64,000 nucleotides of DNA from Alphaproteobacteria bacterium (lineage in GTDB: Bacteria; Pseudomonadota; Alphaproteobacteria; Micavibrionales; Micavibrionaceae). Position numbers and translations under genes: made by a program. Below, piece after piece: positions 34,290-60,172 of the stretch. Below the pieces are notes generated by a model that made no database searches, was not told the DNA's origin, and saw only the letters and a program-made list of their open reading frames with translations. The stretch lies in assembly GCA_017999645.1 (NCBI GenBank), contig JAGNLJ010000007.1, positions 207 to 64,206 of the forward strand, in the 5' to 3' direction. Numbering within the stretch: position 1 is the stretch's first letter; each line of letters begins with the position of its first letter.

Positions 34290-34290
34290 T

Positions 34291-35244
34291 TTACCATTCC
34301 AGTTGCGGGCTGCCGCCGACGAAGGCGATGGCCTGGTTGCCCTGTTGATTGTAGGTCAGCTTGTCGAAGCTGACGGCATTGGCCTGTGCGATGCCGCGCC
34401 CATGGTTGTCCCCCGCGCGCGCCGGCTCAATCGTCATATAACGTTTCCAGTTAAAGCCATTGCCCTGGTCAGTGATGATTGCGTAGAAGCCATCTTCCTT
34501 ACGTGTGATGATGAGTTCAGCCGTGCGGCTTCCGTAGGAATCAAGTTGTTGCCTGCGCTCAATTTCGGCTAGCCACGTACCATTATCCAGCAACTGACTT
34601 TTACGCTCATAGCCAATTTCGAGATTGCCGTGTTCGACGGCATTGGTCAGGAGTTCAGCAAGTCCCAAGAGAACGCGCTCGGGATCGGGAAAGCAATGTG
34701 CTGTGAACGCGGCGAGGCATTCCGCCTCGTTAAGTGTGCGGAAATTGAATTTGCAGGTTCGGATCAGATTGAAGCTGGTGTGATGGCGTTTCAGTTCATC
34801 ACTCAAAGTTCTGTTCTGTTGCGCTTCGCGTGTCGCGGCCAGAAGAACCGAGCGCAACACATCTTCATTCACCGGCTTTGCAAGATAGTAGAACACGCCG
34901 GCCTCAAGCCCTTCCTGCATCTGTTTAACGGTCGAGGCGCCGGTTACCATGATGACAGGGATTTTGCGCAAAGCCGGGTCATCTTTAATCAAACGAACGG
35001 CGCTGAGGCCATCCATGACCGGCATCAGGCGGTCCATCAGAACGACGTCGATGCCGCCCTTCGCGCGGCGCAGGATTTCCAGCGCCTGCTGTCCGTCGGC
35101 GGCCTCTTCCATCATGTGGCCCATCTGCCTGATCTGCTCGCCAAGGAAGGCGCGCTCCAGCCTGTCATCCTCAACGGCGAGAATAGTTAGCGGGCGATCC
35201 TTGGCGCTTAGGAAAGGGATAACGTTTTCGGCAAGTTGTTTCAT
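34291..35244 (-). CDS. Response-regulator receiver fused to an RsbW/SpoIIAB-like ATPase (Ser kinase/anti-sigma-type HATPase)
   Basis: REC domain (ILAVEDD...VLMDRLMPVMDG...K). C-terminal N-box ELLTNAVEHGN, G1 DQGNGF and G2 GRGI. Confidence 0.75.
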   Translation of the reverse strand: MKQLAENVIPFLSAKDRPLTILAVEDDRLERAFLGEQIRQMGHMMEEAADGQQALEILRRAKGGIDVVLMDRLMPVMDGLSAVRLIKDDPALRKIPVIMVTGASTVKQMQEGLEAGVFYYLAKPVNEDVLRSVLLAATREAQQNRTLSDELKRHHTSFNLIRTCKFNFRTLNEAECLAAFTAHCFPDPERVLLGLAELLTNAVEHGNLEIGYERKSQLLDNGTWLAEIERRQQLDSYGSRTAELIITRKEDGFYAIITDQGNGFNWKRYMTIEPARAGDNHGRGIAQANAVSFDKLTYNQQGNQAIAFVGGSPQLEW

Positions 35245-42405: not shown

Positions 42406-42593
42406 TGGGTTTTCCTCCTGGTACTCAGTAACGCATCATAAAAATTTACAACCATTAGTTTAATAACGTGTAAAAATTAGATGGCATTATTGTCATTGAA
42501 TACAGGCGTATTTGGCTAAAATTGAGAAAAGCAGGCGCGCTTGTATTTTCTTGAATATAAACTTATAGTTGTATATCTTCCGCAACGGAAGAC

Positions 42594-44006
42594 ATGGGTA
42601 TTCAGAACCGCCAATCCGGGGGAAATAACGTGCGCCGCTTCATATTTTTTTGCCTGCCATTTCTTATTTACGGGATCCCGCCAGCCATAGCGGAGGATTC
42701 GTCTCAGTCCGGGAACGCTACGCTCGAGCAGGTGCTCAGGCATGTCTATGTGAACAGCCCGGAACTTGAGGCGTCTCGTGCTGAATTACGGGCTTTGCAT
42801 GAACTTCATCCGCAGGCGCTGGCAGGTTGGAAACCGACAGCTGAAGTGGAAACCAGTGTCTATGCTACCGATATCGATAGTAGCAATTTTGCGAATGCCG
42901 ACGGCGCAACCACCAAGGACATTAATGTCAGCATCAACCAGCCTTTATATCGCGGCGGTAAGACGACGGCGGAAACGGAACGGTCTTACAGTCTTATCAA
43001 AGCAGGCTATGCGCGGTTTTTACAAAAAGAGCAGGAGGTTTTCCTGCGCGCGACGACAGCGTATATGGATGTTCTGCGCGACCGCACATTATTGAATCTG
43101 CGCATTAACAATGAAAAAATCCTGGGCGAAGAACTGGCGGCTGTGCGCGAACGTCATAACGCCGGCGATGTCACGCAAACCGATGTGCGGCAGGCCGAAG
43201 CTCGTCTTGCGCGTGCACGGGCCGAGCATGTCGCGGCCTCCGGGCAGCTGGAAAGCAGCCGCGCAGCGTTTGAGGCAATCACAGGCTTTGCGCCGAATGA
43301 AACATTATATGTACCCGGCACGTCGTTCCAGTTCCCGTCGGTCATCGAAGAAATGGTCAGCCGCGCCGAAACGGAAAACCCGGCGCTTGCCATATCTGTG
43401 AACCAGCATGAAGCCGCCCAGAATGATATCGACGCGCGTTTCAGCGAATTGCTGCCGCAGGTCTCGGCATTTGCTTCCTACAACAAGCAATTCGATCCCC
43501 AGCCGGGCGTGATTGATGAATCCGAAACGAAAACGATCGGTGTGCGTGCCAAGATTCCACTCTATGAGGCCGGCTTTGTCCGTTCGCGGGTGCGCGAAGC
43601 CAAAAGCATCGCCAGCCAGCGCAACCAGGAAGTGAATGAACAACGCCGCCTGATCCGGAGAGACATAACCGATAACTGGAAAACACTGGAATCGGCGCGT
43701 GCAGAGATCGCGGCGCGGAACGCGGAGACCGATGCTGCGCGCGCGGCGCTGGAAGGCGTGCGCGAGGAAGCGAAAATGGGTGAGCGCACGGTCCTCGATG
43801 TTCTGGACGCCGATCAGGATGTCCTGAGCGCCGAGGCGGCGCTGGCCCGCGCGCATCATGACGAGGTCATCGCATCCTATGCTCTGGCGGCGGCGATTGG
43901 CTGGTTGCTACCTGAAAAAATGGGCATGGCAGACATTGCGTACCAGCCCGGGCCGCATTACCGCGCGATGAGCAGGAAAATATTCAGCATGAACGCGGAA
44001 AAGTAA
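42594..44006 (+). CDS. tolC: TolC-family outer-membrane channel
   Basis: 470 aa with a signal peptide. Tandem TolC repeats are present, with LEQVLRHVYVNSPELEASRAEL and a second ...AEIAARNAETDAARAALEGVREE. Confidence 0.9.
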   Translation: MGIQNRQSGGNNVRRFIFFCLPFLIYGIPPAIAEDSSQSGNATLEQVLRHVYVNSPELEASRAELRALHELHPQALAGWKPTAEVETSVYATDIDSSNFANADGATTKDINVSINQPLYRGGKTTAETERSYSLIKAGYARFLQKEQEVFLRATTAYMDVLRDRTLLNLRINNEKILGEELAAVRERHNAGDVTQTDVRQAEARLARARAEHVAASGQLESSRAAFEAITGFAPNETLYVPGTSFQFPSVIEEMVSRAETENPALAISVNQHEAAQNDIDARFSELLPQVSAFASYNKQFDPQPGVIDESETKTIGVRAKIPLYEAGFVRSRVREAKSIASQRNQEVNEQRRLIRRDITDNWKTLESARAEIAARNAETDAARAALEGVREEAKMGERTVLDVLDADQDVLSAEAALARAHHDEVIASYALAAAIGWLLPEKMGMADIAYQPGPHYRAMSRKIFSMNAEK

Positions 44007-49628: not shown

Positions 49629-49654
49629 GAAACTTTTAAGGCTTTGGCACCGTT
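49629..49654 (+). promoter_or_regulatory. Weak ECF-type promoter variant upstream of exoD
   Basis: GAAAC-N17-CGTT lies 20 nt upstream of the exoD ATG. Confidence 0.3.
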
Positions 49655-49674
49655 GGTGAGTAAAGAGGTATATT

Positions 49675-50262
49675 ATGCGAAGTACCAAGCTGACGAAATT
49701 GCTGGATAATCTGGATGAGAGCATAGAAGGCCAGAAGGAGGTATCTCTGGCCGATATTGTTGAAGCCCTTGAAAAAAGGGGCTTTGGCGCGCTTTTGCTG
49801 GCACCCGCCTTGATTACCGTATTACCGACGGGTGCCATTCCTGGAGTACCGGCTGTGTGTGCGGTCGTAATCTGCCTGATAGCAGGGCAACTGGTGATCG
49901 GCCTTAAAAAGCCATGGGTGCCGTCCTTGCTGGGTAAGGTTTCCATCAGCCGTAAGAAGCTTTCTCATGCCATCGAGAAATCCAAACCTTACGCCGAGGT
50001 CGTGGATGGATTTGCCGCTCCGCGCTATGAATTCCTGACGAAAGATGTTTCGCAGCGCGTGATCGCTGTTTTGTGCATGGCATTGGCTGTAATGATGGCG
50101 ATGATCGGCTTCGTGCCGTTCGTACCCGCGCTTTTCTCTCTGCCTGTGTTGCTATTCGCTGCAGGCATATGCCTGCGGGATGGTTTGCTGACGCTTTCCG
50201 GTTTTGCGTTCTGCTTTATTGCAGCGGTGGCGTTGCCCTTCCTGATCACTCTTCTGAAATAA
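49675..50262 (+). CDS. exoD: ExoD-family membrane protein
   Basis: LADIVEALEKRGFGALLLAPALITVLPTGAIPGVP is ExoD-like. Multiple TM segments. Confidence 0.8.
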   Translation: MRSTKLTKLLDNLDESIEGQKEVSLADIVEALEKRGFGALLLAPALITVLPTGAIPGVPAVCAVVICLIAGQLVIGLKKPWVPSLLGKVSISRKKLSHAIEKSKPYAEVVDGFAAPRYEFLTKDVSQRVIAVLCMALAVMMAMIGFVPFVPALFSLPVLLFAAGICLRDGLLTLSGFAFCFIAAVALPFLITLLK

Positions 50263-50268
50263 AAAAAA

Positions 50269-50308
50269 TCACGGAAGGAGCGATTGGCTCACCTTCCGTG
50301 ATTTTTCT
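50269..50308. terminator. Bidirectional terminator
   Basis: 11-bp stem ATCACGGAAGG / CCTTCCGTGAT, flanked by an A-run and a T-run. Confidence 0.8.
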
Positions 50309-50318
50309 ATTCATAAAT

Positions 50319-50555
50319 TTAGTCGAGGTTAATGTCGTCCTCGTCAGTCAGTGCGCCAGTTGCTGCACCGGCTGCGCCGCCGATAGCCGCACCAGCCCAT
50401 GGGCTGCCGCCTGTCAAAGCGCCGCCTACTGCGCCTGCACCAGCACCAATGGCACCGCCGCTGAGGGCGCGTTCAGTTTTGGACGTACCGCAACCCGTAA
50501 CGCCGAGTGATACGGCGAGGAATGCAGCGATTAAAATTGGGTGTCTGATAGACAT
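50319..50555 (-). CDS. Glycine-zipper lipoprotein (Pcp/SlyB-like)
   Basis: Lipobox LGVTGC, then repeated GxxxG zippers (GGAIGAGAGAVGGALTGG...GAAIGGAAGAATGAL). Confidence 0.75.
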   Translation of the reverse strand: MSIRHPILIAAFLAVSLGVTGCGTSKTERALSGGAIGAGAGAVGGALTGGSPWAGAAIGGAAGAATGALTDEDDINLD

Positions 50556-50578
50556 GATGGTTCTCCTTTATTTCAGTC

Positions 50579-50776
50579 TTATTGAGTCATTTCAGTTTGG
50601 TGGTAAAACTCGGCTTCGATTTCATGGATCGGTTTACCGGTCATCTCCTGCATCAGGTCGATGACAACACCGTCATCATCGCTTATCTGAGGAAGATCGG
50701 CCCCGTCAGGACTTGCAAAACACACAAAAACAACGTTTTCAAAATCCTCTACTTCGCGCATAAGGCTGCTTTTCAT
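50579..50776 (-). CDS. Small acidic hypothetical protein (65 aa)
   Basis: AAGGAG lies 7 nt upstream of the ATG at 50776. An ECF-type promoter sits 32 nt upstream. Confidence 0.5.
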   Translation of the reverse strand: MKSSLMREVEDFENVVFVCFASPDGADLPQISDDDGVVIDLMQEMTGKPIHEIEAEFYHQTEMTQ

Positions 50777-50808
50777 GATAGGTCTCCTTTGCATTCGTAT
50801 GATTTACA

Positions 50809-50833
50809 AACGTGTAGATGGCACTGAAGTTCC
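50809..50833 (-). promoter_or_regulatory. ECF (EcfG-type) promoter GGAAC-N16-CGTT
   Basis: The plus strand reads AACG-tgtagatggcactgaa-GTTCC. The -10 element ends 32 nt before the start at 50776. Confidence 0.6.
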
Positions 50834-50858
50834 CGTCTGGAAAATTTACTCATAGCCA

Positions 50859-50893
50859 TAAAAAAGAGCGCGGACATACGAATCCGCGCTCTT
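50859..50893 (-). terminator. Terminator after csbD
   Basis: 10-bp stem AGAGCGCGGA / TCCGCGCTCT, with a T-run on the minus strand. Confidence 0.7.
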
Positions 50894-50912
50894 CTAAAAA
50901 TATGCAGAGTGA

Positions 50913-51116
50913 TTAGGCAGCTCTGGATTTATTCCACTCATTCAGTTGCTTTTCAGCTTCTTCACGGGCAACACCATAGCTTTCTTGAATCTTGCCGAGC
51001 AGCTTCTCGCTGTCGCCGTTGATCTCATCAAGAGTGTCATTGGTCAGAAGGCCCCATTTTTTCTGAACGTCGCCTTTTACCTGTTTCCATTTACCTTCAA
51101 AAATATCCTTGTTCAT
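50913..51116 (-). CDS. csbD: CsbD-family general stress protein
   Basis: FEGKWKQVKGDVQKKWGLLTNDTLDEINGDSEKLLGKIQESYG is the CsbD signature. Confidence 0.9.
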   Translation of the reverse strand: MNKDIFEGKWKQVKGDVQKKWGLLTNDTLDEINGDSEKLLGKIQESYGVAREEAEKQLNEWNKSRAA

Positions 51117-51194
51117 AGTCTTCTCCTTTTTTTCATGTTGTTTAAGAATGGCGGCCCAGCCCGGAAAGGGGGGCGGGCCGCCTTGGGGGTAAAC

Positions 51195-52049
51195 TTAGTT
51201 TGTGGCCGTCTTCTTGAAGTTTTCGAAGTTGGCTGTCTGGCTCGCCGTCAGCTGAACGTCGAGGTCGTTCTTCTCACGAACAATTCTCGAACCTTCAAAG
51301 CTCATGGCTGCTTTCTCGCCACCAAGACCCAGCGTCTTGTCGAAGCCGATAATGATCTGGCTGGCTTCGCCATTGCTGAAGGAGATGTTGTCGATTTCAG
51401 CGACATTTTCCTTCTTCTGGTTCAGGACCTGGCCTTCGAGAAGGCGGGCAACGCTGATTCCGTTAGCAGGAACGATGCGGACTTTTGCATCCTTCTCGGC
51501 ATCTTTCGGCTCATACGAGAACGGCGCGACTTTATTCAGCGTGTCCTGTGTAATCGGCATGATCACATCGCCATCCTTCTGGCGCTGGGATACAAGGTTA
51601 TAGTCAAAGGCAGCCAGTTTGGTGCCGATGCCCATGAAACCGCCATCTGCAAGGACGACCATCTGTGCATTGCCATCAGCGTCAAGGATGATGTCCTGAA
51701 CGCTGGCGATCTTTTTGCCGCTGGTGTCGAGAACCGGCTGGCCGATCATACCGGACGCGGTGTTGCGCGAATCGATGGTCACGCTTGATGAGGTCGAAGT
51801 TTCTTCCTCGCCGATTACAGTGGCCTTGATATCTTCATAAGCCTCTTCGACGGCCTTGGATGTTTTATCCGCGGCTTCGGAAGCGCCTTCTTTTACATTT
51901 TCCCATTCACGCTTTGCATCCTGCGAGAGGGAAGGAGCATCGGCTTTAACTTCAGCATTTGCATTGGCCGAGGTTTCCGCCCATGCGGGCACGCTTGCTG
52001 CCATCGCAACAGCGGACGCGGCAATCAAAAACTTGTTCTTCGTAATCAT
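51195..52049 (-). CDS. Secreted protein with two PRC-barrel domains
   Basis: Signal peptide MITKNKFLIAASAVAMAASVPAWA. MIGQPVLDTSGKKIASVQDIILDADGNAQMVVLADGGFMGIG is PRC-barrel-like, and a second copy lies near the C-terminus. Confidence 0.8.
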   Translation of the reverse strand: MITKNKFLIAASAVAMAASVPAWAETSANANAEVKADAPSLSQDAKREWENVKEGASEAADKTSKAVEEAYEDIKATVIGEEETSTSSSVTIDSRNTASGMIGQPVLDTSGKKIASVQDIILDADGNAQMVVLADGGFMGIGTKLAAFDYNLVSQRQKDGDVIMPITQDTLNKVAPFSYEPKDAEKDAKVRIVPANGISVARLLEGQVLNQKKENVAEIDNISFSNGEASQIIIGFDKTLGLGGEKAAMSFEGSRIVREKNDLDVQLTASQTANFENFKKTATN

Positions 52050-52088
52050 GACTTTTTCCTTCATTTGGATAGGGTTGTTCGGGTTACA

Positions 52089-52113
52089 AACGCTTTTTTC
52101 AATAAAATGTTCC
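52089..52113 (-). promoter_or_regulatory. ECF (EcfG-type) promoter GGAAC-N16-CGTT
   Basis: The plus strand reads AACG-cttttttcaataaaat-GTTCC, 39 nt from the start at 52049. Confidence 0.65.
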
Positions 52114-52185
52114 CAAAAAATAAGCCGGACAGCCCCGAAGGACTGTAACCGGCCTGAGGTGGTTGGGTGGGGGAGGGAAAACTTT

Positions 52186-52437
52186 TTAGCAGGTCCTGAT
52201 GTCGACGCGGTCGAAATGGCCTATTTTTTCTTCAGCCTGAATCTGCAAATCTTTGAGATCGTACAGCAGCTCAGATAAACGAGAATCAAAATCCTCTTCC
52301 GCGTCACTGTTCGAAAAATTCGTTTCAATCACCAGCACATCCTCGGGATCGTGCATACCGCTATAATTCTTTTTGAGGTATATGGATGATACCAGCGGAT
52401 GTGTAACGCTATTCAGTATTTCCGGGACGTTCATCAT
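52186..52437 (-). CDS. Small acidic hypothetical protein
   Basis: An 83-aa ORF with GAGGAG upstream. No family recognised. Confidence 0.45.
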   Translation of the reverse strand: MMNVPEILNSVTHPLVSSIYLKKNYSGMHDPEDVLVIETNFSNSDAEEDFDSRLSELLYDLKDLQIQAEEKIGHFDRVDIRTC

Positions 52438-52550
52438 AATTTGGTGCTCCTCTTTGTTCTCTTTAAAGCTTACGAAGCCCCGGTAACCTTAATATGTCCC
52501 TTGTGTAAGCCTTTTGAAATATTTTGTTTCAGTTGTGTAACAAAGGAATT

Positions 52551-52575
52551 GGAACCTAAAAACGTATATAACGTT
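52551..52575 (+). promoter_or_regulatory. ECF (EcfG-type) promoter GGAAC-N16-CGTT
   Basis: GGAAC-ctaaaaacgtatataa-CGTT, 37 nt before the ATG at 52613. Confidence 0.65.
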
Positions 52576-52612
52576 AGCTCGGCACAACAACCATCTCGAA
52601 GGGAGAATGATT

Positions 52613-53158
52613 ATGAAGACTATGTATCTGATGACGGCGGCTGCCGTAGCGTTGATCGGTTTCAGCGCCGTAGCCCAGGCAGAGACAGTGACCACCAAGG
52701 TCAATGTCCAGCAAAAAGACATTCCTGATGTTAATAAAGTGAACCTGATCGTATTCGACACCGATAAAAACGGCATTCTGTCGATGAAGGAAGTAGGCCA
52801 ATACCTGTTCGATGTTTTTGATAACGACAAGAACGGCTCGATCGACAATATCGAATTCAAGCAGAAACGTTTCATGACCATCATTCCGATGGAAAAGGAA
52901 ACCACGCTGCAGGTTGACTTCAATGATGACGGCATTCCTGAGAAAGTCGATCACACTGAGGAAACTTTCATCAAGCAATCGCAATTGATGCGTTTTGACG
53001 GCAATATGGATGGCCTGTCAGCTAACGAATTCATCAACACGGGCTATGAAAAGCTCGATGACGATGAAGACAAGCTGATCAATGCCGAGGAATGGGATGA
53101 AGCTTATATGGAGCTTACCCGCGCCCCGGTAAACGAGCCGGAACGCTACCAGAATTAA
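52613..53158 (+). CDS. Periplasmic EF-hand calcium-binding protein
   Basis: Signal peptide MKTMYLMTAAAVALIGFSAVAQA. EF loops DTDKNGILSMKE, DNDKNGSIDNIE and DGNMDGLSANE. GGGAG lies 7 nt upstream of the ATG at 52613. Confidence 0.8.
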   Translation: MKTMYLMTAAAVALIGFSAVAQAETVTTKVNVQQKDIPDVNKVNLIVFDTDKNGILSMKEVGQYLFDVFDNDKNGSIDNIEFKQKRFMTIIPMEKETTLQVDFNDDGIPEKVDHTEETFIKQSQLMRFDGNMDGLSANEFINTGYEKLDDDEDKLINAEEWDEAYMELTRAPVNEPERYQN

Positions 53159-53181
53159 GCCCACTGTGGCTTATGAACAAA

Positions 53182-53209
53182 GCCGCCCTTGAAAAAGGGC
53201 GGTTTTTTT
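53182..53209 (+). terminator. Rho-independent terminator
   Basis: GCCGCCCTT-GAAA-AAGGGCGG followed by T7. Confidence 0.8.
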
Positions 53210-53211
53210 AT

Positions 53212-53237
53212 GGAACGGTTCTATTAGGGGAACCGTT
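53212..53237 (+). promoter_or_regulatory. ECF (EcfG-type) promoter GGAAC-N17-CGTT
   Basis: GGAAC-ggttctattaggggaac-CGTT, 26 nt before the ATG at 53264. Confidence 0.6.
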
Positions 53238-53263
53238 GGGAAGAGTAGAAAGGAAGAAAAAAT

Positions 53264-53485
53264 ATGAAAATAATACGCTCGACTTTCTACGGGCCCGTGC
53301 AAGGCCTGCAAAACTGGGCCGTATCCTTGCAACGATATTTCTTTCAGAGCAAAGACCACGATTCTGCCATGTATGAGTTTAGGGATCCTTACCATGATCT
53401 GCAGTATATGCACGATACGGAAATGGAGCGCCTCGTAAAAGTTATAGAGGACATGAAAGGCGATAGTCGCCATCATTATCAGTAA
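53264..53485 (+). CDS. Small hypothetical protein (73 aa, His/Tyr/Asp-rich)
   Basis: AGGAAG lies upstream. The ORF sits between an ECF-type promoter and a terminator. Confidence 0.5.
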   Translation: MKIIRSTFYGPVQGLQNWAVSLQRYFFQSKDHDSAMYEFRDPYHDLQYMHDTEMERLVKVIEDMKGDSRHHYQ

Positions 53486-53511
53486 CTGCTCCTCATCAGG
53501 AATAAAAAAAC

Positions 53512-53539
53512 CCGCCAGGTTATAACCGGCGGGTTTTTG
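53512..53539. terminator. Bidirectional terminator
   Basis: CCCGCC...GGCGGG, with a flanking A-run and T-run. Confidence 0.75.
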
Positions 53540-53540
53540 T

Positions 53541-53747
53541 TTAACCTTTAGGAACGTTGGCTATAGCCAGCTCCTGGGCCTGTTTCAGGTCATTGACGCT
53601 ACCTGTCGATACGATGGCACCTCCGAATGAAACAATCCATTTCCATGATTCTTTTTTTTGGGAGCATTGAGCGATACTCTTCTGTCTCTCAACGACCAGT
53701 TCGTATTTGTTTACGTCAGTGCATAATTTTTGTGTTTCCCAGTTCAT
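53541..53747 (-). CDS. Small hypothetical protein (68 aa)
   Basis: GGAGAA lies upstream. An ECF-like promoter variant sits 32 nt upstream. Confidence 0.5.
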   Translation of the reverse strand: MNWETQKLCTDVNKYELVVERQKSIAQCSQKKESWKWIVSFGGAIVSTGSVNDLKQAQELAIANVPKG

Positions 53748-53779
53748 TTCAATTCTCCGTATTAAGGTTGCAGCTATCC

Positions 53780-53804
53780 AACGCCTGAAACGAAGGATTG
53801 TTCT
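53780..53804 (-). promoter_or_regulatory. ECF-type promoter variant AGAAC-N16-CGTT
   Basis: The plus strand reads AACG-cctgaaacgaaggatt-GTTCT. Confidence 0.4.
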
Positions 53805-53808
53805 AAAA

Positions 53809-53832
53809 AAAGCCCGGAAAAACCGGGCTTTT
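53809..53832. terminator. Bidirectional terminator
   Basis: AGCCCGG-AAAAA-CCGGGCT, flanked by A7 and T5. Confidence 0.7.
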
Positions 53833-53834
53833 TG

Positions 53835-53906
53835 TATTAGAAGAAAATGTTGTAAAGAATGATGATGGGGATGGGGACCCCGACCAAAAACATAAGAAAG
53901 CTTTTC
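53835..53906 (-). CDS. Unlisted 23-aa hydrophobic peptide (MKSFLMFLVGVPIPIIILYNIFF)
   Basis: TAGGAGAA lies 6 nt upstream of the ATG at 53906. It is a single TM-length peptide immediately downstream of another small membrane-protein gene. Confidence 0.35.
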
Positions 53907-53917
53907 ATCTCGTTCTC

Positions 53918-54085
53918 CTATCTCGCTGTTGTATTGTCATCTATCTCGTCGCCGATTTCCTCGACAACTTCACCGACGCTGCCCGCAATGCCGTCATCCT
54001 TCGGCTCGTTGTATTGCACGAACAATACTGCGAGAATGGCGACAAGCAACACTGCAATCAGTGTCAGTAAGCCTTTGTCAGTCAT
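53918..54085 (-). CDS. Small single-pass membrane protein with an acidic tail (55 aa)
   Basis: The start was set at MTDKGLLTLIAVLLVAILAVLFV (54085), with GAGAGGA upstream. Confidence 0.5.
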   Translation of the reverse strand: MTDKGLLTLIAVLLVAILAVLFVQYNEPKDDGIAGSVGEVVEEIGDEIDDNTTAR

Positions 54086-54118
54086 TGTAGTGTTCCTCTC
54101 TGTGGTTCTGTAACATCC

Positions 54119-54144
54119 AACATCCACCGATAGGAGTAAGTTCC
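54119..54144 (-). promoter_or_regulatory. ECF-type promoter variant GGAAC-N17-TGTT
   Basis: The plus strand reads AACA-tccaccgataggagtaa-GTTCC, 33 nt from the start at 54085. Confidence 0.45.
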
Positions 54145-54164
54145 CTTCGGCTAAAAACCCGGAA

Positions 54165-54587
54165 TTAATGCAGCAGCTTTTCCGCGGCGATATAACCAGC
54201 CAGGCTGGCGATCATTACGGCCGTTTTCGGGTTTTCCCTGATGGGTTCTTCCAGTTCCTCACCCACGACTTCGAGGGCTGAGTGGAGGTTGTTTTTTAGT
54301 ACGCTGTAATAACCCTGCAATTGCTTACGCTTTTCGGCGTATATGCTGTAAATAACGATCGCAATGATTATTCCCAGAGACATCGTGCCCGCGCCTACGA
54401 CGAGGCGGGCAGTCTGTAGATCGTAATGCGTAACCAGCCAGTCATAACCGGCGGCCACAAGGAAACCGCCGCCCGCCACCGCGAGGAAACCTGCGAAAAG
54501 TAACGCAGGTCCCATCTGGGTGCGGACGGGCCGTGATTCCTGCATCAGCAGCGAAATAATCGCATGCTCAAGCGAGGGCGCGGCCAT
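54165..54587 (-). CDS. Hypothetical membrane protein (occupies the YqjE position after a DUF883 gene)
   Basis: 2-3 TM segments. It starts 3 nt after the DUF883 gene. Family not verified. Confidence 0.55.
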   Translation of the reverse strand: MAAPSLEHAIISLLMQESRPVRTQMGPALLFAGFLAVAGGGFLVAAGYDWLVTHYDLQTARLVVGAGTMSLGIIIAIVIYSIYAEKRKQLQGYYSVLKNNLHSALEVVGEELEEPIRENPKTAVMIASLAGYIAAEKLLH

Positions 54588-54590
54588 TGG

Positions 54591-54950
54591 TTACCGGCGC
54601 TTTCCAAGCAGGAAGCTGGCGGCTAAGCCTGCAAAGAATGCAATCGCCAGAGCCTGTCCTGGTTTTTCGGTGACGCGGTGCTCAAGTTTGTGCAGCGTGT
54701 CTTCGCCTGCTTTACGCGCTTTCTCAAGCTGTTTGCCTGCAAAGCGCTTCGCATCGTCGACGTGCTTGCCGCCGTTTGATTTTACATGCTGCGTCAGGGA
54801 CACAACATCATCTTTCAGGCTGGCGAGATCGTCTTTGATGTTATCGATTTCAGGATATTCATCTTTCAGTGCGTTCGGGCTGAGCGCGCGGAGCGATGAG
54901 TAATCGCTGTCCTGATTCGAATTATTGTAGTCGGGTTTGCTTTTTGCCAT
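54591..54950 (-). CDS. DUF883 (ElaB/YqjD/YgaM) membrane-anchored stress protein
   Basis: The C-terminus EKPGQALAIAFFAGLAASFLLGKRR parallels E. coli ElaB EKPWQGIGVGAAVGLVLGLLLARR. Confidence 0.85.
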   Translation of the reverse strand: MAKSKPDYNNSNQDSDYSSLRALSPNALKDEYPEIDNIKDDLASLKDDVVSLTQHVKSNGGKHVDDAKRFAGKQLEKARKAGEDTLHKLEHRVTEKPGQALAIAFFAGLAASFLLGKRR

Positions 54951-54983
54951 GGGGATTCTCCTATTGTTGATAGCGCAATGACC

Positions 54984-55008
54984 AACAGTCTTAGAGGAGA
55001 AAAGTTCC
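54984..55008 (-). promoter_or_regulatory. ECF-type promoter variant GGAAC-N16-TGTT
   Basis: The plus strand reads AACA-gtcttagaggagaaaa-GTTCC, 33 nt from the start at 54950. Confidence 0.45.
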
Positions 55009-55030
55009 GGCCCGGCAGGCTTTTAAAGGC

Positions 55031-55771
55031 CTAGTTCTCAATCTGGCCGGTGAACATATAGCCAATGCCGCGCACGGTTTTAACGAATTTGGGGTCCTGC
55101 GGGTCGTCCTTGAGTTTCTTGCGGATTCGGCCGATCTGGATGTCGATGGCGCGGTCGTACGAATCGAAATTGCCAGTGCGGGTTAATTCGAAAAGAAATT
55201 CCCGGCTGAGTGCCCGGTTCGGAGAAAGCAGCAGCGCTTCAAGAAGCTTGAACTCTCCGGTTGTCAAATCAGCCGAGCGATTCTTTTCATCAAACAATTG
55301 ATACTGCGTGCGGTCGAGGCACCATCCTGCGAAGCGAATTTTATCCGGGCCATTCTGCTGCGGATTATTCTCGTTAGTAACTTCGACGTTAGCACGGCGA
55401 AGAACTGCTTTGATTCGTGCAGACAGTTCGCGCATTTCGAAAGGCTTTGTAATGTAATCGTCCGCGCCCATCTCTAAACCGACGATCTTTTCTGTTGTAT
55501 CGCTCTTGCCGCTGACGATGATAATCGAAGCTTTGCTTCTTTCACGAATATGACTGATAAGACTAAAGCCTTCAGCGTCCGGCAAAACGAGATCAAGCAG
55601 CACAACATCAGCCGCGCAGTTTGGCAGCTTCTCCTGCAGGTCTTTTCCGCTGACCGCTTTAAGGACTCGGTACCCGTCATCCTCCAGGTATTGTCCTACG
55701 ACCAGTTGCAGATTTTCATCGTCATCGACGCTGAGTATTGTCGCTTTCGGCAATGTCTCTGCCCTTTTCAT
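55031..55771 (-). CDS. OmpR/PhoB-family response regulator
   Basis: REC domain (ILSVDDD...LLDLVLPDAEG...K) plus a winged-helix C-terminus (VRGIGYMF). Confidence 0.9.
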   Translation of the reverse strand: MKRAETLPKATILSVDDDENLQLVVGQYLEDDGYRVLKAVSGKDLQEKLPNCAADVVLLDLVLPDAEGFSLISHIRERSKASIIIVSGKSDTTEKIVGLEMGADDYITKPFEMRELSARIKAVLRRANVEVTNENNPQQNGPDKIRFAGWCLDRTQYQLFDEKNRSADLTTGEFKLLEALLLSPNRALSREFLFELTRTGNFDSYDRAIDIQIGRIRKKLKDDPQDPKFVKTVRGIGYMFTGQIEN

Positions 55772-55921
55772 ATCTTAAGAAGTTGAAATGACTATATATT
55801 CTTATTTACAAAAAAGAAACAAACTTTTTCCACTTTAATACAAGAGCGACAAACAGACGTTACAGCCGGGGGCTAATCTTTAATCAGGATTAACCAACAC
55901 TGAGAAAAAAGGAAACCTGTC

Positions 55922-56473
55922 ATGTTTGAACAAACCGCTCTCGTTACCGAGATGAAAAATCTCCGGAAGTTTGCTTTCCGGCTGACCGGCAACCCCAGCG
56001 ATGCCGAAGACCTTCTGCAATCTACGGTTCTTCGCGCCCTGGAGAAAAAGCATCTGTTCCAGAAGGATACGGATCTCTTCAAATGGACATCAAAGATCAT
56101 GTTCAACTTGTTCGTGTCGGAATACCGCCGCCGGACCAAGTTTGAGACGCAATATGACCCCGAAACCTACCTGGAGCGTCAGAGCGTCGAAGGCTCGCAG
56201 GAAGTGAAACTGGAATTGTCCAAGGTTAAAGATGCCATGAAGCAGCTTTCCGCCGACCACCAGGAGATTCTTGTCCTGGTCTGCGTCAAGGGCATGCGTT
56301 ACGAGGAAGTCTCGGAAGCGCTTGAAATTCCGGTTGGAACGGTTCGCTCGCGCCTTGCTCGCGCGCGTGAAAACCTCCAGATCATTCTCGACACACCAGT
56401 CAAGAAAGATGCCGGTCGCTTTACACCCCCTTACCGACTGGGCAATGAAAAGAATATGCGCGCTGCCGCTTAA
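55922..56473 (+). CDS. ECF-type RNA polymerase sigma factor
   Basis: Region 2 reads DAEDLLQSTVLRALEKKHLFQKDTDLFKWTSKIMFNLFVSEYRRR. Region 4 reads MRYEEVSEALEIPVGTVRSRLARAR. Confidence 0.9.
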   Translation: MFEQTALVTEMKNLRKFAFRLTGNPSDAEDLLQSTVLRALEKKHLFQKDTDLFKWTSKIMFNLFVSEYRRRTKFETQYDPETYLERQSVEGSQEVKLELSKVKDAMKQLSADHQEILVLVCVKGMRYEEVSEALEIPVGTVRSRLARARENLQIILDTPVKKDAGRFTPPYRLGNEKNMRAAA

Positions 56474-56497
56474 TGAGCAGGCAACCGCATACAAAAA

Positions 56498-56525
56498 ACC
56501 CGGCTTCCCCCGCCGGGTTTTTTTA
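56498..56525. terminator. Bidirectional terminator between the sigma gene and the kinase gene
   Basis: ACCCGGC-TTCCCCC-GCCGGGT, flanked by A6 and T8. Confidence 0.8.
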
Positions 56526-56533
56526 TGGGCTGA

Positions 56534-58822
56534 TTAAGCCGCCTTACGATTACGGTCGAGATATTTCAGGATCTGGGTTTTGAGGTCGACTTCGACGATC
56601 GGCTTCGGCAGATAGGCATCCATGCCGGCTGCGATGCATTTGTCCTTATCGCCGATAAGCGCATGAGCCGTCATGCCGATAATCGGTGTGCGGGGCATGT
56701 CTTTCTCGCCTTCCATGATCCGGATCTGCGTGGTGGCAGTAAAACCGTCCATCTCCGGCATCTGGATATCCATCAGGATCAGGTCGTAATGTTTATCTTT
56801 CCAGAGATTGAGCGCCTCAAGGCCCGTGCGTGCGACGTCATAGCTGCAGCCGATCTCGTCGAGGATATAGCCGATGACGACGATATTGCCTTCGTAATCT
56901 TCGACCATCAGGATGCGGTTCTCGCCGCTGAGGGTTGTTTTGATTTTATCCGAAAGCTTCTGGCTCAGGATCTTGGCGTCACTGTCCTTGGCGCCTGCGG
57001 GCGCATTGACGTCCTGCATGGGTAGTAGAAGTGTAAAGACCGAGCCTTTGCCTTGTTCGCTGTCGAGTAGGATGCTGCCGCCCATAATCTGCGCGAGATT
57101 CCGCGAAATCGGTAGGCCAAGGCCTGTGCCGCCGTAACGGCGCGAAACGGATGAATCGGCCTGTTTGAAACGTTCGAAAATAATGCTGTGGTTTTCAGGC
57201 GCAATGCCTATACCCGTGTCCTGAACGCCGACCTCAAGGAATTTGATCCCCTCGCGTTCTTGTATATCGGCAGTAACATTAACACTGCCTTTTTCGGTGA
57301 ACTTGACTGCGTTGCCGATAAGATTAATCAGGATTTGGCGAAACCTGGTTTTATCGCCGAAGAAATTCGTGTCTTTCGTGTTGCCGTAGTCAAAGGTAAA
57401 GCCGAGACCTTTTTCCTTCGCATTGACAGACATGATGCTGATGACCTGCTGGAACACGGCATCGAGTCCAAAATTCTCTTTGGTCAGCTCGAGTTCGCCG
57501 CTCTCGATTTTCGAGAAATCCAGGATGTCGCTGACGAGATCTTTCAGTGTAGAGGTGCTGGACGACAATGTTTTCGCGAGCTGTTTTTGCTTTTCGTTAA
57601 GGCTGTCGCGGTCCTTCTGGAAGATCTCGGCAATGCCGCTGATGGCGGTCAAAGGCGTGCGGATTTCATGGCTCATATGCGCAAGGAAATCACTTTTCGC
57701 CCTGTTGGCTCGTTCAGCCATTTGCTTCTCGGATTTAAGTTTTTCCTGATATTCCTTCATGTATGTGATGTCGATATTGGCGCCCACCATGCGGATCGGC
57801 TCGCCGTCGCGGTTGAAAATCGCCTTGGCACGGGAATTGACCCATACCCAGCGGCCATTTTCATGACGCAAGCGGAAGCTGTTGGAATACTCGGACAGTT
57901 CGTGCCGCAGGTAACGCTCGATATATTGCCAGACTTTATTTAAATCTTCAGGGTGGATCAGGTTTCGGAAGTCATCAATTGTTCCTATGAAAGCTTCGCG
58001 GTCCTGTCCCAGCATGCCGAAAAACTGCCGCGAATAGAAAACCTTGCCGTTCTTTATATCCCAGTCGAAAATACCATCATTTGTGCCTTGTATGGCAAGA
58101 GCAAAGCGCTGTTCGGTATCCTTCAACGATTGCTCGGCATCATGACGTCGATTCTGCGTGTGGAACAGCATGATGTTGAAGACGATGACAGCCATGGCCG
58201 TCAGGATTCCGCCGATGCACAGCGTGTAAAAATAATCGCTCTTTTTTTCGTCAAGCAGCGCGATCTGATTATTAAGAATCTGGTGCTCCTCCTTCAAAAC
58301 AGCACTGTTGATTTTTAGCATATCATTTTTGGTGTTTGTAATGACGTCGACTTCATTGACGAAGCCTTCCGGCACGCCGACCGGTTTGTACATCTTGGCG
58401 CGTTCTTCAAGGCGTATTGTCAGGCCGCGGAACAGCTGGCGCAACTCGTCGATACGGCTGCTCTGGGAGCGGTTGTCTTTTACAAGCTCGCTAACAGTTG
58501 CGAGAAACTCCGAAATGGCCATTTTACGGTTGTTATATTCATCGAAGAATTTTTCTTGGCCGGTCATGACATAAGCGCGCTGGCTTGAAATCATGCCTTC
58601 GACATGGGCTGAAAATTCTTCCGCCTGCAGGATTGTTTTATAGGTATGGCTGATCCAGTAATCGGTCCGCTGGATCTGGCGGTCGCCTGAAACAAGGATG
58701 TAGCCGAGCCAGAGCGTGCAGGTGAAAACCAGTGCCATAATAACCAGAATCCGCCTGACGAGCTGGCGATCCTGTGTCATGGCGATGACCACGCGGCGCA
58801 TATTGGCGATTTTTGTTCTCAC
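56534..58822 (-). CDS. Hybrid sensor kinase (CHASE3-TM-PAS-HisKA-HATPase-REC)
   Basis: CHASE3-like ISHTYKTILQAEEFSAHVEGMISSQRAYVMTGQEKFFDEY. H-box FLAHMSHEIRTPL, G-box GGTGLGLPISRNLAQIMGG and REC LILMDIQMPEMDG. Confidence 0.9.
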   Translation of the reverse strand: MRTKIANMRRVVIAMTQDRQLVRRILVIMALVFTCTLWLGYILVSGDRQIQRTDYWISHTYKTILQAEEFSAHVEGMISSQRAYVMTGQEKFFDEYNNRKMAISEFLATVSELVKDNRSQSSRIDELRQLFRGLTIRLEERAKMYKPVGVPEGFVNEVDVITNTKNDMLKINSAVLKEEHQILNNQIALLDEKKSDYFYTLCIGGILTAMAVIVFNIMLFHTQNRRHDAEQSLKDTEQRFALAIQGTNDGIFDWDIKNGKVFYSRQFFGMLGQDREAFIGTIDDFRNLIHPEDLNKVWQYIERYLRHELSEYSNSFRLRHENGRWVWVNSRAKAIFNRDGEPIRMVGANIDITYMKEYQEKLKSEKQMAERANRAKSDFLAHMSHEIRTPLTAISGIAEIFQKDRDSLNEKQKQLAKTLSSSTSTLKDLVSDILDFSKIESGELELTKENFGLDAVFQQVISIMSVNAKEKGLGFTFDYGNTKDTNFFGDKTRFRQILINLIGNAVKFTEKGSVNVTADIQEREGIKFLEVGVQDTGIGIAPENHSIIFERFKQADSSVSRRYGGTGLGLPISRNLAQIMGGSILLDSEQGKGSVFTLLLPMQDVNAPAGAKDSDAKILSQKLSDKIKTTLSGENRILMVEDYEGNIVVIGYILDEIGCSYDVARTGLEALNLWKDKHYDLILMDIQMPEMDGFTATTQIRIMEGEKDMPRTPIIGMTAHALIGDKDKCIAAGMDAYLPKPIVEVDLKTQILKYLDRNRKAA

Positions 58823-58890
58823 GATTGCCTTTCTTTGAAGGATTCTTATAAAAGCCGATCAAGACCGTCGATGCAAATAAAAAACACGCA

Positions 58891-58916
58891 AAAAAGGCGC
58901 TGAAACAGCGCCTTTT
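58891..58916 (-). terminator. Terminator after the DUF1328 gene
   Basis: GGCGCTG-AAA-CAGCGCC, with T6 on the minus strand. Confidence 0.7.
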
Positions 58917-58932
58917 AAGGATATCGACCCCT

Positions 58933-59109
58933 CTAGGCCGGTGGCATTCTGCCGCGCACGACATGCGCGACCATAGCTATCAGGAAGAGGACGATGAAGA
59001 TAAAGAACAAGATTTTAGCCATCTCTACGGATACGGCGGCAACACCGCCAAATCCCAATAGGCCAGCAATCAAGGCAATAACCAGAAATGTAACAGCCCA
59101 TTGCAGCAT
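58933..59109 (-). CDS. DUF1328 (YtjA/UPF0391) small membrane protein
   Basis: [24 protein letters not shown] is the family signature. AAGGAGAA lies upstream of the ATG at 59109. Confidence 0.85.
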
Positions 59110-59143
59110 GGTGTTCTCCTTTGTTAGAACATTATGGACATCC

Positions 59144-59168
59144 AACGCGGAAAACATGAAAAAGTTCC
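59144..59168 (-). promoter_or_regulatory. ECF (EcfG-type) promoter GGAAC-N16-CGTT
   Basis: The plus strand reads AACG-cggaaaacatgaaaaa-GTTCC, 34 nt from the start at 59109. Confidence 0.65.
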
Positions 59169-59175
59169 TAAAACT

Positions 59176-59201
59176 GGAACCCCTCAGGGTGTAGAGTTGT
59201 T
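59176..59201 (+). promoter_or_regulatory. ECF-type promoter variant GGAAC-N17-TGTT
   Basis: GGAAC-ccctcagggtgtagagt-TGTT, 43 nt before the ATG at 59245. It lies back-to-back with the promoter at 59144-59168. Confidence 0.4.
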
Positions 59202-59244
59202 ATAGTTATATGGCCTTATCGTATTTATATTTCAGGGATAAATA

Positions 59245-59442
59245 ATGAAAACGACGACCCGGCAGACGATAACGGATTTCGATATCCAGGCCCTGGTGGA
59301 TAACGAACTGGGCTGGGAAGAGAGAAAATCAGTACTAGCCTTTGTTGAATCCGATTCTGACGCTCGTCGCCGTTATGAAGAGCTTGTCCGTCAAAAACGT
59401 CTGCTTCTGGAATGGTGGGCGAGCGGCGGCTTCGCGCATTGA
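59245..59442 (+). CDS. 65-aa protein resembling only the N-terminal sigma-binding helix region of an anti-sigma factor
   Basis: ITDFDIQALVDNELGWEERKSVLAFVESDSDARRRYEELVRQKRLL follows the LxAYVDGELxxxE...DPxAR..YE.L pattern. There is no TM or extracytoplasmic part. Confidence 0.5.
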   Translation: MKTTTRQTITDFDIQALVDNELGWEERKSVLAFVESDSDARRRYEELVRQKRLLLEWWASGGFAH

Positions 59443-59449
59443 ATAAATT

Positions 59450-60172
59450 TTACGCTGCCTTGTGCGGCAGGGCGTAGGTTTCGCCTTCAAGCAATATTGC
59501 AGGAATGGGTGAAGGGCTCGCGACCGCGATGATTTTATGCATCGCTGCGGGGTGATTGATCCGCGGATAGAAAATACCATTCTTGTAACAGATGACCGCG
59601 ACATGATCGAAATGTTTCCGAAGACGCTGCTCCAGTGATTTGGCCGTGTAGAATGTCACGTGCGTCGGATCGTCCAGAATACGTTTCCATTTACGATTAA
59701 CAACAACTTCAAAAAAATCATTAAAACGCTTTACCGGGTAATTCGGCGTACTAACAAAAAGAATGCCGTCGTTTTTCATGATGCGGCGCATGTCCTTGAG
59801 GTAAAAATCCGTCTTGGCCGCAGGAATATGCTCGATCACTTCCATCAGGTTGACGACGTCGAACAGGTTATCAGCGAAGGGCACATGGTTGTTCAGAGGA
59901 ACATGCACGACATTCTTCCAGCCGCTGTCATGACATCGCTGCACACGTTTGGCTGAAACCTCGTTTCCAAAAATATTGTCGCGGGGCAGTCCGTGATGCT
60001 CAAAGCGCGGCAGGTGCTTGCCGTCGCCGCACCCGTAATCGAGCGCCTTGATCTGGCCGGGTTGCTGTTGTCTGTTTTGTAGAAACCTAGTGAACACACG
60101 GTCCCAGACAGGATTGATATCACTGTTGAACTGTTTCACATCCGCGTATTTCTCAAAATCCTGCTTGTCCAT
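59450..60172 (-). CDS. Class I SAM-dependent methyltransferase
   Basis: Motif I ALDYGCGDGKH. The start was set at MDKQDF (60172); the upstream ORF extension is Arg/Leu/Asn-rich junk. Confidence 0.75.
   Translation of the reverse strand: MDKQDFEKYADVKQFNSDINPVWDRVFTRFLQNRQQQPGQIKALDYGCGDGKHLPRFEHHGLPRDNIFGNEVSAKRVQRCHDSGWKNVVHVPLNNHVPFADNLFDVVNLMEVIEHIPAAKTDFYLKDMRRIMKNDGILFVSTPNYPVKRFNDFFEVVVNRKWKRILDDPTHVTFYTAKSLEQRLRKHFDHVAVICYKNGIFYPRINHPAAMHKIIAVASPSPIPAILLEGETYALPHKAA

Follow-up and report, generated by a model that had tools for sequence, protein, structure and literature searches.

The window studied here is a 64-kb stretch of contig JAGNLJ010000007.1 (assembly GCA_017999645.1, Alphaproteobacteria, Micavibrionaceae), and all coordinates given without a locus name are window positions. 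A block of about 10 kb in it (49.6–59.5 kb), called the islet below, contains ten promoters of the type read by extracytoplasmic function (ECF) sigma factors, and these stand ahead of genes of the general-stress type. The islet also contains the gene of an ECF sigma factor (55922..56473, + strand), a two-component pair flanking this gene, and the gene of a65, a protein of 65 amino acids (aa) proposed as the anti-sigma factor. A preliminary description of this DNA had suggested ECF promoters for a stress islet, and this core idea is right. As to the islet as a whole, we lean, with some reserve, towards a self-contained, conserved stress islet that would be run by its own ECF sigma factor under three layers of control. 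This control appears to be exerted by a two-component system and a tiny anti-sigma factor rather than by the PhyR–NepR switch.

Promoters of the islet and the genes behind them

A pattern search over the whole window found, at the positions given there, all five exact GGAAC-N16/17-CGTT sites of the preliminary description, as well as its five one-mismatch variants (three GGAAC..TGTT, one GAAAC and one AGAAC). The core of the motif equals the published consensus of EcfG, the sigma factor to which it had been attributed (GGAAC-N16-CGTT; R. etli, PMC3892343; S. granuli, PMC7083833). The sites do form a compact cluster: all five exact ones are located within 8.4 kb, and the remaining 54 kb contain none. 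The spacing of 20–43 nt between the −10 element and the start codon was borne out for the sites, and every start codon is preceded by a Shine–Dalgarno sequence.

The number of exact sites was compared with that in 100 dinucleotide shuffles and 1000 Markov simulations of the window. The computed expectation is 1.1 sites, in agreement with the earlier estimate of about one, and a total of five was reached in one of the 100 shuffles and in 0.7% of the simulations. For the whole window, five sites against 1.1 expected are only moderately unusual. The placement of the sites is much stronger evidence than their count and is not explicable by chance: all five are intergenic, correctly oriented and 10–60 nt upstream of a start codon, whereas the simulated mean of such sites is 0.036 and the maximum is 1 (n = 1000).

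Loci of related genomes, designated by L numbers, were used to build a position weight matrix (PWM). It was trained on orthologous loci only, with the window and its 96%-identical twin excluded, and was run over the window with a threshold of 13 bits. Eight matches were found; all of them are sites described earlier, and none lies outside the islet. The two sites under the threshold are 53780(−) and 59176(+). The former is the weakest of all, is loosely conserved and must be considered doubtful. The latter can be retained despite its score because of its conservation: the −35 element GGAAC is kept upstream of the orthologous gene in nine of ten loci. In nine of the ten window sites, a G is found two bases after (C/T)GTT, the exception being 59176(+).

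The motif is strongly enriched in the relatives. In 17 loci with a total length of 284 kb, again without the window and its twin, 42 exact sites were found against 4.1 expected, which is a ten-fold excess (P ~1e-27). The motif precedes the DUF1328 gene, the gene of a 119-aa protein and the PRC-barrel gene in seven or eight loci each, and the EF-hand gene, the a65 gene and others in several. Altogether, about ten related genomes show the motif ahead of these gene families, and it is kept before orthologous genes while the surrounding sequence diverges. Such conservation upstream of the same families is a phylogenetic footprint, which indicates that the sites are real promoters of the ECF sigma type ahead of general-stress-type genes. 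A crude scan for sigma-70 promoters before the small genes gave eight sites against 9.7 expected, none of them convincingly placed. No match to known RNA families was found in Rfam for the 48–61 kb region at E up to 0.1.

The first promoter (49629..49654, +), a GAAAC-N17-CGTT variant followed by gg, is located 20 nt before the start codon of the gene encoding an ExoD-family membrane protein (49675..50262, +; Pfam ExoD, E 3e-45). Its PWM score is 20.0 bits, and a GAAAC site occupies the same place in L001 and L081. The exact promoter 50809..50833 (−), with 20.7 bits and conserved in L001, L008 and L081, serves a two-gene unit (50319..50776, −). The first gene (50579-50776, −) encodes a 65-aa protein of no family, distinct from a65; the second, probably driven by the same promoter, encodes a YMGG Gly-zipper lipoprotein (50319-50555, −; Pfam Gly-zipper_YMGG, E 1.5e-9). 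The same order of these two genes can be noted in L081 and L082. The next unit (50913..52064, −) consists of the PRC-barrel gene (51195-52064, −; Pfam PRC, E 2e-10) and the CsbD gene behind it (50913-51116, −; Pfam CsbD, E 2e-16). It is preceded by the exact promoter 52089..52113 (−), which scores 21.0 bits; the motif stands before PRC orthologues in L001, L002, L004, L005, L007, L008 and L082.

On the opposite strand, the exact promoter 52551..52575 (+; 16.4 bits) precedes the gene of a secreted EF-hand protein (52607..53158, +; Pfam EF-hand_6, E 5e-6), and the motif is found before its orthologues in L001, L002, L016 and L081. The exact promoter 53212..53237 (+; 17.7 bits), an exact counterpart of which is present in L001 and L081, is followed by the gene of a 73-aa protein of no family (53264-53485, +). 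The doubtful variant AGAAC-N16-CGTT gg (53780..53804, −), the least certain of the ten, precedes the gene of a 68-aa protein, also of no family (53541-53747, −); the orthologous positions read CGAAC..CGTA in L001 and GGAAC..AGTT in L082. The gene of a 55-aa membrane peptide (53918-54085, −) has a GGAAC-N17-TGTT gg promoter (54119..54144, −; 15.5 bits), which is also present in L001. In L081, a gene of the lipid A deacylase LpxR (7109-8101 of that locus) is located within the islet in place of the 68-aa and 55-aa genes.

The GGAAC-N16-TGTT gg promoter 54984..55008 (−; 16.9 bits; motif in L001, L002, L005, L006, L008, L010, L016 and L081) belongs to a pair of genes. The first encodes a YqjD/ElaB-like tail-anchored protein of 119 aa (54591-54950, −), and the second a YqjE-like membrane protein of 140 aa (54165-54587, −; sub-threshold Phage_holin_3_6 match, 11.7 bits). 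The 119-aa protein had been described as DUF883. Both of its scores are below the Pfam cut-offs (DUF883, 14.4 bits against 25.4; DUF883_C, 12.2 bits against 27), and the two domains occur in the right order next to the YqjE-like neighbour.

The highest score (23.7 bits) belongs to the exact promoter 59144..59168 (−) of the gene encoding a DUF1328 membrane protein (58933..59109, −; Pfam DUF1328, E 2e-15); the motif is found at this gene in L001, L002, L005, L006, L008, L010, L081 and L082. The DUF1328 gene has its own terminator downstream, a hairpin with a T-run at about 58890-58925 (−) that the terminator scan missed. Since this terminator follows the DUF1328 gene, its co-transcription with the histidine kinase gene of the two-component pair was rejected, and the kinase gene probably has a promoter of its own. 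The tenth promoter (59176..59201, +), GGAAC-N17-TGTT, precedes the a65 gene. In L006, L008 and L010 it has the exact CGTT element; in L081 and L082, as in the window, it has TGTT. The DUF1328 and a65 promoters stand back to back (59144-59201), with their −35 GGAAC elements on opposite strands and 7 nt apart. The near-palindrome formed by the two GGAAC elements was miscalled a hairpin by the terminator scan.

The genes behind the promoters had been called classic members of the general-stress regulon. Pfam supports this for CsbD, the PRC barrel, the Gly-zipper lipoprotein, DUF1328 and the EF-hand protein, and leaves the 'DUF883' assignment under its cut-offs; ExoD is a further family typical of general-stress regulons. 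Genes of csbD and a PRC-barrel protein are documented EcfG targets (PMC7083833, among other sources). Five small open reading frames (ORFs) of the islet have no match to any family. Each site faces a gene, as had been stated; the CsbD and Gly-zipper genes have no motif of their own, being located behind the PRC-barrel gene and the gene of the 65-aa protein of no family.

The order of the response regulator gene (−), the sigma gene (+), the hybrid kinase gene (−), the DUF1328 gene (−) and the a65 gene (+) recurs in L001, L002, L005, L006, L008, L010, L016, L081 and L082. On the other side of the islet, these nine loci have the 119/140-aa pair, PRC, CsbD, EF-hand, Gly-zipper and ExoD genes. The sigma gene is located within the islet in at least ten genomes, namely in every genome showing the islet, and the flanking genes vary: MotAB or BipA is found on one side, and a methyltransferase, Usg or an RND pump on the other. 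The G+C content of the islet (47–50% over positions 52000-60000) is lower than in the rest of the window (52–57%). The lower G+C content and the variation of the flanking genes between genomes suggest that the islet moves or is retained as a unit.

Elsewhere in the window, positions 35254-44006 contain a type I secretion set (an HlyD-family adaptor, two ABC exporters and an outer-membrane OEP protein) enclosing a 649-aa ORF (40456-42405), for which no Pfam match was found.

The sigma factor and its candidate anti-sigma factor

The sigma factor of the islet (Pfam Sigma70_r2 and Sigma70_r4_2) belongs to a distinct alphaproteobacterial clade. Its closest relatives, 44–96% identical, are encoded by uncultured Alphaproteobacteria and by metagenome-assembled genomes (MAGs) of Sneathiella and of Micavibrio-like bacteria, and the next ones are below 41%. 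The lineages with the islet are Sneathiella-like, Micavibrio-like and unnamed Alphaproteobacteria. A neighbour-joining tree places the sigma factor in a clade of its own beside a broad alphaproteobacterial ECF supercluster, and it is equally distant (33–41%) from relatives linked to PhyR/NepR and from those linked to classical anti-sigma factors. In a search of the PDB, the best match was the Bartonella quintana sigma factor 5uxx_A (E 1e-21), with Mycobacterium tuberculosis SigH close to it (5e-20) and SigE of the same species also among the nearest solved relatives. The B. quintana-type sigma factor, SigH and SigE read GGAAC...(C)GTT promoters. Given that the nearest solved relatives have this specificity, it is plausible for the islet sigma factor as well.

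The clade promoters have an extended −10 element, CGTT(g/t)G. A comparison set was composed of five loci with PhyR (two of them also with NepR) and three others with clusters of the EcfG-type motif. A G two bases after CGTT is found in 32 of the 42 clade sites and in 7 of the 29 sites of the comparison loci (Fisher P 2e-5). The comparison loci are richer in G+C, yet the G extension is rarer there, and the extended form is absent from those containing PhyR. The position of the sigma gene inside the islet, the motif on the a65 gene and the clade-specific −10 extension together tie the promoters to the local sigma factor, which probably reads them.

The name EcfG, which the preliminary description had brought in, is not established for this sigma factor. 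Neither NepR nor PhyR is encoded nearby, the neighbouring kinase is not of the HWE type, the sigma gene has no motif of its own, the identity to bona fide EcfG is 33%, and the clade is a separate one. The value of 33% holds both for 5uxx_A and for the NepR/PhyR-linked sigma factor of L019, whereas these two are 58% identical to each other. The PhyR_sigma2 score of the islet sigma factor is 24.5 bits, under the cut-off of 27 bits. No GGAAC..CGTT promoter was found upstream of the sigma gene, either with the PWM or by reading the 150-bp gap.

The search for PhyR and NepR covered the 64-kb window and 10 kb on each side of 18 orthologous sigma genes, and neither was found there. The window contains no second sigma-like domain, hence no PhyR. 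With the PhyR of L017 as a query, matches were obtained in L017, L019, L021, L037 and L065 only, and none in the window or in L001-L016; no PhyR domains are listed in L081 or L082. An EP[VIL]P-type NepR motif is absent from the window and from L001-L016. The three megabase contigs of the clade are not among the best 120 PhyR matches in a collection of 5.8 billion proteins, which is a weak negative, since these matches end at 45% identity and thousands tie. According to Pfam, the kinase beside the sigma gene is of the HisKA/CHASE3/PAS type and not of the HWE/HisKA_2 type. Among the EcfG features looked for, the locus therefore shows the promoter consensus and lacks NepR, PhyR, an HWE/HisKA_2 kinase and sigma autoregulation.

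The a65 gene (59245..59442, +) encodes a soluble protein conserved in the module in nine loci. In L011, it is located 4 bp downstream of the sigma gene. This is the only locus where the two genes are adjacent; in the window they are separated by 2.8 kb, with the kinase gene between them. In eight loci or more, the profile of the a65 family matches the N-termini of ORFs that directly follow a related ECF sigma gene. Alignment of the family with these anti-sigma N-termini by hhalign gave a probability of 98.1% and an E-value of 8e-14 over 56 columns. Proteins of the family are 54–65 aa long, lack zinc ligands, a transmembrane segment and the NepR-like EPVP helix, and end in an invariant WW. By this homology, a65 is a shortened, soluble vestige of an anti-sigma domain of the classical kind, and we consider it quite probable that a65 is the anti-sigma factor of the islet sigma factor, with binding predicted from this relationship. 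A motif on the gene of the predicted anti-sigma factor is the usual feedback arrangement of ECF systems.

The Pfam match to zf-HC2 is faint (E 0.065 for the a65 homologue of L011). Searches of the PDB with a65, both as a single sequence and as a profile, returned spurious repeat or coiled-coil matches only. The possibility that a65 is a NepR was rejected: neither a65 nor its homologues match Pfam NepR (cut-off 25.7 bits; the NepR of L019 scores 48.9 bits), and the EPVP motif is absent.

Some loci contain proteins of 70–110 aa beside ECF sigma genes (L037 10502-10816, L031 10500-10850, L040 1827-2159, L053 9062-9319 and L021 8531-8989), which join a classical anti-sigma N-terminus (DLQDYIEGRL...) to a NepR-like C-terminal helix (L..EPVP..LLDIL). 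The two that were scanned, from L037 and L031, score 24–25 bits with Pfam NepR, just under the cut-off. In evolutionary terms, such proteins may connect the classical anti-sigma domains with NepR. a65 retains only the first, anti-sigma half of this two-part architecture.

The two-component pair and the repeat arrays

The sigma gene is divergent from the gene of an OmpR-family response regulator (55031..55771, −; Pfam Response_reg and Trans_reg_C; best NCBIfam matches OmpR and TorR). The regulator gene adjoins the sigma gene in the window and in L001, L002, L004, L005, L006, L008, L010, L011, L013, L016, L081 and L082. On the other side of the sigma gene is the gene of a hybrid histidine kinase (56534..58822, −) with the Pfam domain order CHASE3-PAS-HisKA-HATPase-REC, the PAS domain being PAS_3. 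Both genes flank the sigma gene in the window and in at least nine loci (L001, L002, L005, L006, L008, L010, L016, L081 and L082). Another hybrid kinase, of 982 aa with the order HisKA-HATPase-REC-REC-Hpt, is encoded at 31341-35244 (−) together with an adjacent 317-aa REC + HATPase_c_2 protein, the latter domain having an RsbW-type kinase-like fold. Its Hpt domain is the only one seen in the window and is 22 kb away from the hybrid kinase of the islet.

The gap between the regulator and sigma genes contains an array of repeats, TTTACA-N5-GAAACA...TACA-N5-GACA...GTTACA-N9-TAATCT (55805..55879, +), which an alignment shows to be conserved in 13 loci. It consists of GTTACA-like hexamers in direct orientation, which are candidate boxes for the regulator, followed by a −10 hexamer. 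The first two hexamers are 11 bp apart, and three more are roughly in helical phase. In most of the printed instances, read by eye rather than by a scripted count, the last box is followed by 9 nt and then by TAnnnT. A second array, GTTACA-N5-GAAACA...TTACA-N5-GACA...GTTACC-N9-TAAGCT (52467..52541, −), likewise with candidate response-regulator boxes and a −10 hexamer, is located upstream of the gene of an 83-aa acidic protein, designated u83 (52186..52437, −). This gene has no ECF promoter, and the array upstream of it is also present in L001 and L082. The combination TTACA-N5-GAWACA occurs exactly twice in the 64 kb, before the sigma gene and before u83.

Interpretation of the array as a −35/−10 pair of a sigma-70 promoter was rejected, as the distance to TAnnnT is only 9 nt for the last box and exceeds 20 nt for the GACA box. 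Direct repeats with helical spacing that abut the −10 element and replace the −35 element are the classic arrangement for activators of the PhoB/OmpR family. Because the arrays look to be of this type and the divergent regulator belongs to the same family, we infer that transcription of both genes, sigma and u83, is under the control of the two-component pair. Whether the regulator would indeed bind the candidate arrays and drive the sigma gene seems to us evenly balanced. Control of ECF sigma transcription by two-component systems has precedents in the groups ECF39 and ECF32 (PMC7826278).

For u83, no Pfam or NCBIfam match was found, and its relatives amount to 35 clusters only in the collection of 5.8 billion proteins. 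The AlphaFold2 model (pLDDT 78) consists of three strands, two helices and one strand; a Foldseek search of the PDB with this model gave nothing better than an E-value of 0.05 and a TM-score of 0.4. The u83 sequences of the window and L001 are 100% identical, whereas the neighbouring proteins of the two loci are 79–97% identical.

Competing readings and likeness to known systems

The following scheme can be proposed. A signal of the envelope or redox type would be sensed by the CHASE3-PAS hybrid kinase and the OmpR-type regulator. Once phosphorylated, the regulator would bind the GTTACA-like repeats about 11 bp apart, 9 nt upstream of TAnnnT. The array stands before two genes only, sigma and u83, and these would be activated in the PhoB/OmpR manner, with the boxes in place of the −35 element. 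The sigma factor would then bring RNA polymerase to the islet promoters, about ten in number and of the form GGAAC-N16/17-(C/T)GTT(g/t)G. Their outputs would be ExoD, the 65-aa and Gly-zipper proteins, the PRC-barrel protein and CsbD, the EF-hand protein, three tiny proteins, the YqjD/YqjE-like pair and DUF1328. The a65 protein, itself produced by the action of the sigma factor, would bind it and damp the response through feedback.

Several points weigh against this scheme. L003, L009 and L013 contain the sigma gene without clusters of the motif nearby. The hybrid kinase has a receiver domain of its own, and the module encodes no Hpt domain for phosphotransfer to the regulator. a65 has no sensing domain to account for the release of the sigma factor. 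In three orthologues (L003, L008 and L082), the array fortuitously fits GAAAC-N16-CGTT, leaving room for weak autoregulation. Every functional step is deduced from sequence, the binding of the regulator to the candidate arrays included. Finally, a canonical EcfG with NepR and PhyR elsewhere in the genome could read the same promoters.

The last point is the basis of the strongest competing reading. In this reading, the main user of the promoters is a canonical EcfG whose gene lies elsewhere in the genome and which is under NepR/PhyR control, and the local sigma factor is an accessory paralogue, similar to SigU or to EcfG2 of Rhizobium etli or Sphingopyxis granuli, with overlapping specificity or a place inside the same cascade. 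The core motif does not differ from the EcfG consensus, and the DUF1328, Gly-zipper and CsbD genes carry the motif beside PhyR in L017, and also in L019, L037 and L053. L017 is a Sneathiellaceae genome with a PhyR locus, and the Sneathiella MAGs L005 and L006 have the islet module. About half of alphaproteobacterial genomes carry extra EcfG copies without neighbouring NepR or PhyR (PMC3892343). The ecfG2 gene of S. granuli also lacks an EcfG-type promoter and an adjacent anti-sigma gene, and yet its product is the master regulator (PMC7083833). Nevertheless, no PhyR or NepR was found in the 64 kb or in the 18 orthologous loci, and none of the best 120 PhyR matches comes from the three megabase contigs of the clade, although the latter negative is weak. 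The local sigma factor has a predicted non-NepR anti-sigma factor of its own, the gene of which carries the motif; the CGTT(g/t)G extension does not occur in the PhyR-containing comparison loci; and the identity to bona fide EcfG is only 33%. We therefore regard this reading as possible but rather unlikely.

According to another reading, the sigma gene is autoregulated in the way usual for ECF sigma factors, the two-component pair either has nothing to do with the sigma factor beyond being its neighbour or acts downstream of it, and the array is a degenerate ECF promoter or a site of some other factor. The GAAAC-N16-CGTT match of the array before the sigma gene in L003, L008 and L082 agrees with this, as does the last box of the array, which is often CGTTAC. 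However, the −35 position mostly contains TAC rather than AAC (AATAC in the window), and the 'spacer' has a conserved CGACAAA, which is unusual for ECF promoters. Moreover, the same array, including another two boxes farther upstream that are spaced by 11 bp, is found before u83, and in nine genomes or more the regulator and kinase genes stay with the sigma gene, so that autoregulation of this kind is improbable. As for a chance or compositional artefact of an AT-richer region, the low G+C content of the islet and the one shuffle in 100 that reached five sites would suit it, but it is effectively refuted by placement and orientation (5/5 against 0.036 expected), by the PWM scan, by the ten-fold enrichment in 17 independent loci and by the retention of the motif upstream of orthologues amid diverging surroundings.

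If the islet is indeed run by its own sigma factor, a further and more tentative step can be taken. The clade may have replaced the PhyR–NepR switch with a diverged EcfG-like sigma factor that kept the ancestral GGAAC-CGTT promoter and a compact regulon of general-stress genes, with transcriptional activation by the OmpR-type regulator and CHASE3-PAS kinase and with a minimal three-helix remnant of an anti-sigma factor, u83 being a possible further partner; we think this less probable than not. The PhyR-NepR-EcfG pathway is regarded as what defines the general stress response of Alphaproteobacteria and as almost universal among them. A conserved lineage with this promoter code and a regulon of this kind under other control, here a two-component system and a truncated classical anti-sigma factor, would illustrate how the output of a sigma regulon can be retained after a change of its input. 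The islet would also be a compact test bed, with about ten promoters, the sigma and anti-sigma genes, the two-component pair and two candidate regulator sites within 10 kb. As the host organisms are known only from metagenomes, the heterologous cloning of so small an islet matters. If a PhyR system is present elsewhere in the genome, the finding shrinks to a further EcfG-like paralogue of the non-canonical sort, the regulon of which is unusually tidy; it would gain in interest should PhyR and NepR be missing from complete genomes of the clade.

Parts of the islet resemble several known systems. In classical ECF sigma/anti-sigma pairs of the zf-HC2 type, approximately the first 56 residues of the anti-sigma factor are homologous to a65, and these factors are encoded directly downstream of related alphaproteobacterial sigma genes. 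In contrast, a65 is a soluble protein of 54–65 aa without zinc ligands or a transmembrane or sensor part, and its gene is usually about 2.8 kb away from the sigma gene.

A similar gene arrangement is that of sigma-E of Streptomyces coelicolor (ECF39): this ECF sigma factor is encoded next to CseB/CseC, a regulator of the OmpR family with its histidine kinase, and the proposed control is that of sigma transcription (PMC7826278). ECF39 includes subgroups that have a two-component system and no anti-sigma factor (PMC7826278), whereas the islet has a short one, and the phylum and the regulon are different. For the uncharacterised group ECF246, an anti-sigma factor and a DNA-binding regulator are predicted from the gene neighbourhood (PMC7826278). 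By this description it has the same three-part design as the islet. ECF246 was set aside as the group of the islet sigma factor, since the only named member found is from Leptospira.

The EcfG paralogues, namely EcfG2 of R. etli, EcfG2 of S. granuli and SigU of Caulobacter crescentus, are likewise encoded without adjacent NepR or PhyR. They coexist with a PhyR–NepR switch that still controls the response, and they have neither a dedicated anti-sigma factor nor an OmpR-type pair alongside, whereas both are conserved partners of the islet sigma factor.

The closest comparison is with the EcfG-NepR-PhyR system itself (ECF15; SigT, RpoE2, RpoE4/EcfG1). The islet has the same promoter core, GGAAC-N16/17-CGTT, and a regulon of the same kind, with CsbD, a PRC-barrel protein, small membrane proteins, lipoproteins and many unknowns. 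Both sigma factors belong to one broad alphaproteobacterial ECF supercluster, and 5uxx_A is the solved structure nearest to that of the islet. The differences concern mainly the control: the locus has no NepR, PhyR or HWE/HisKA_2 kinase, the sigma gene has no motif of its own, and the sigma factor, 33% identical, forms a separate clade. The predicted anti-sigma factor is a fragment of the classical domain, the −10 element is extended to CGTT(g/t)G, and the regulon is packed around the sigma gene, whereas that of EcfG is scattered. On the whole, the locus resembles an output of the EcfG kind that has been connected to other input machinery.

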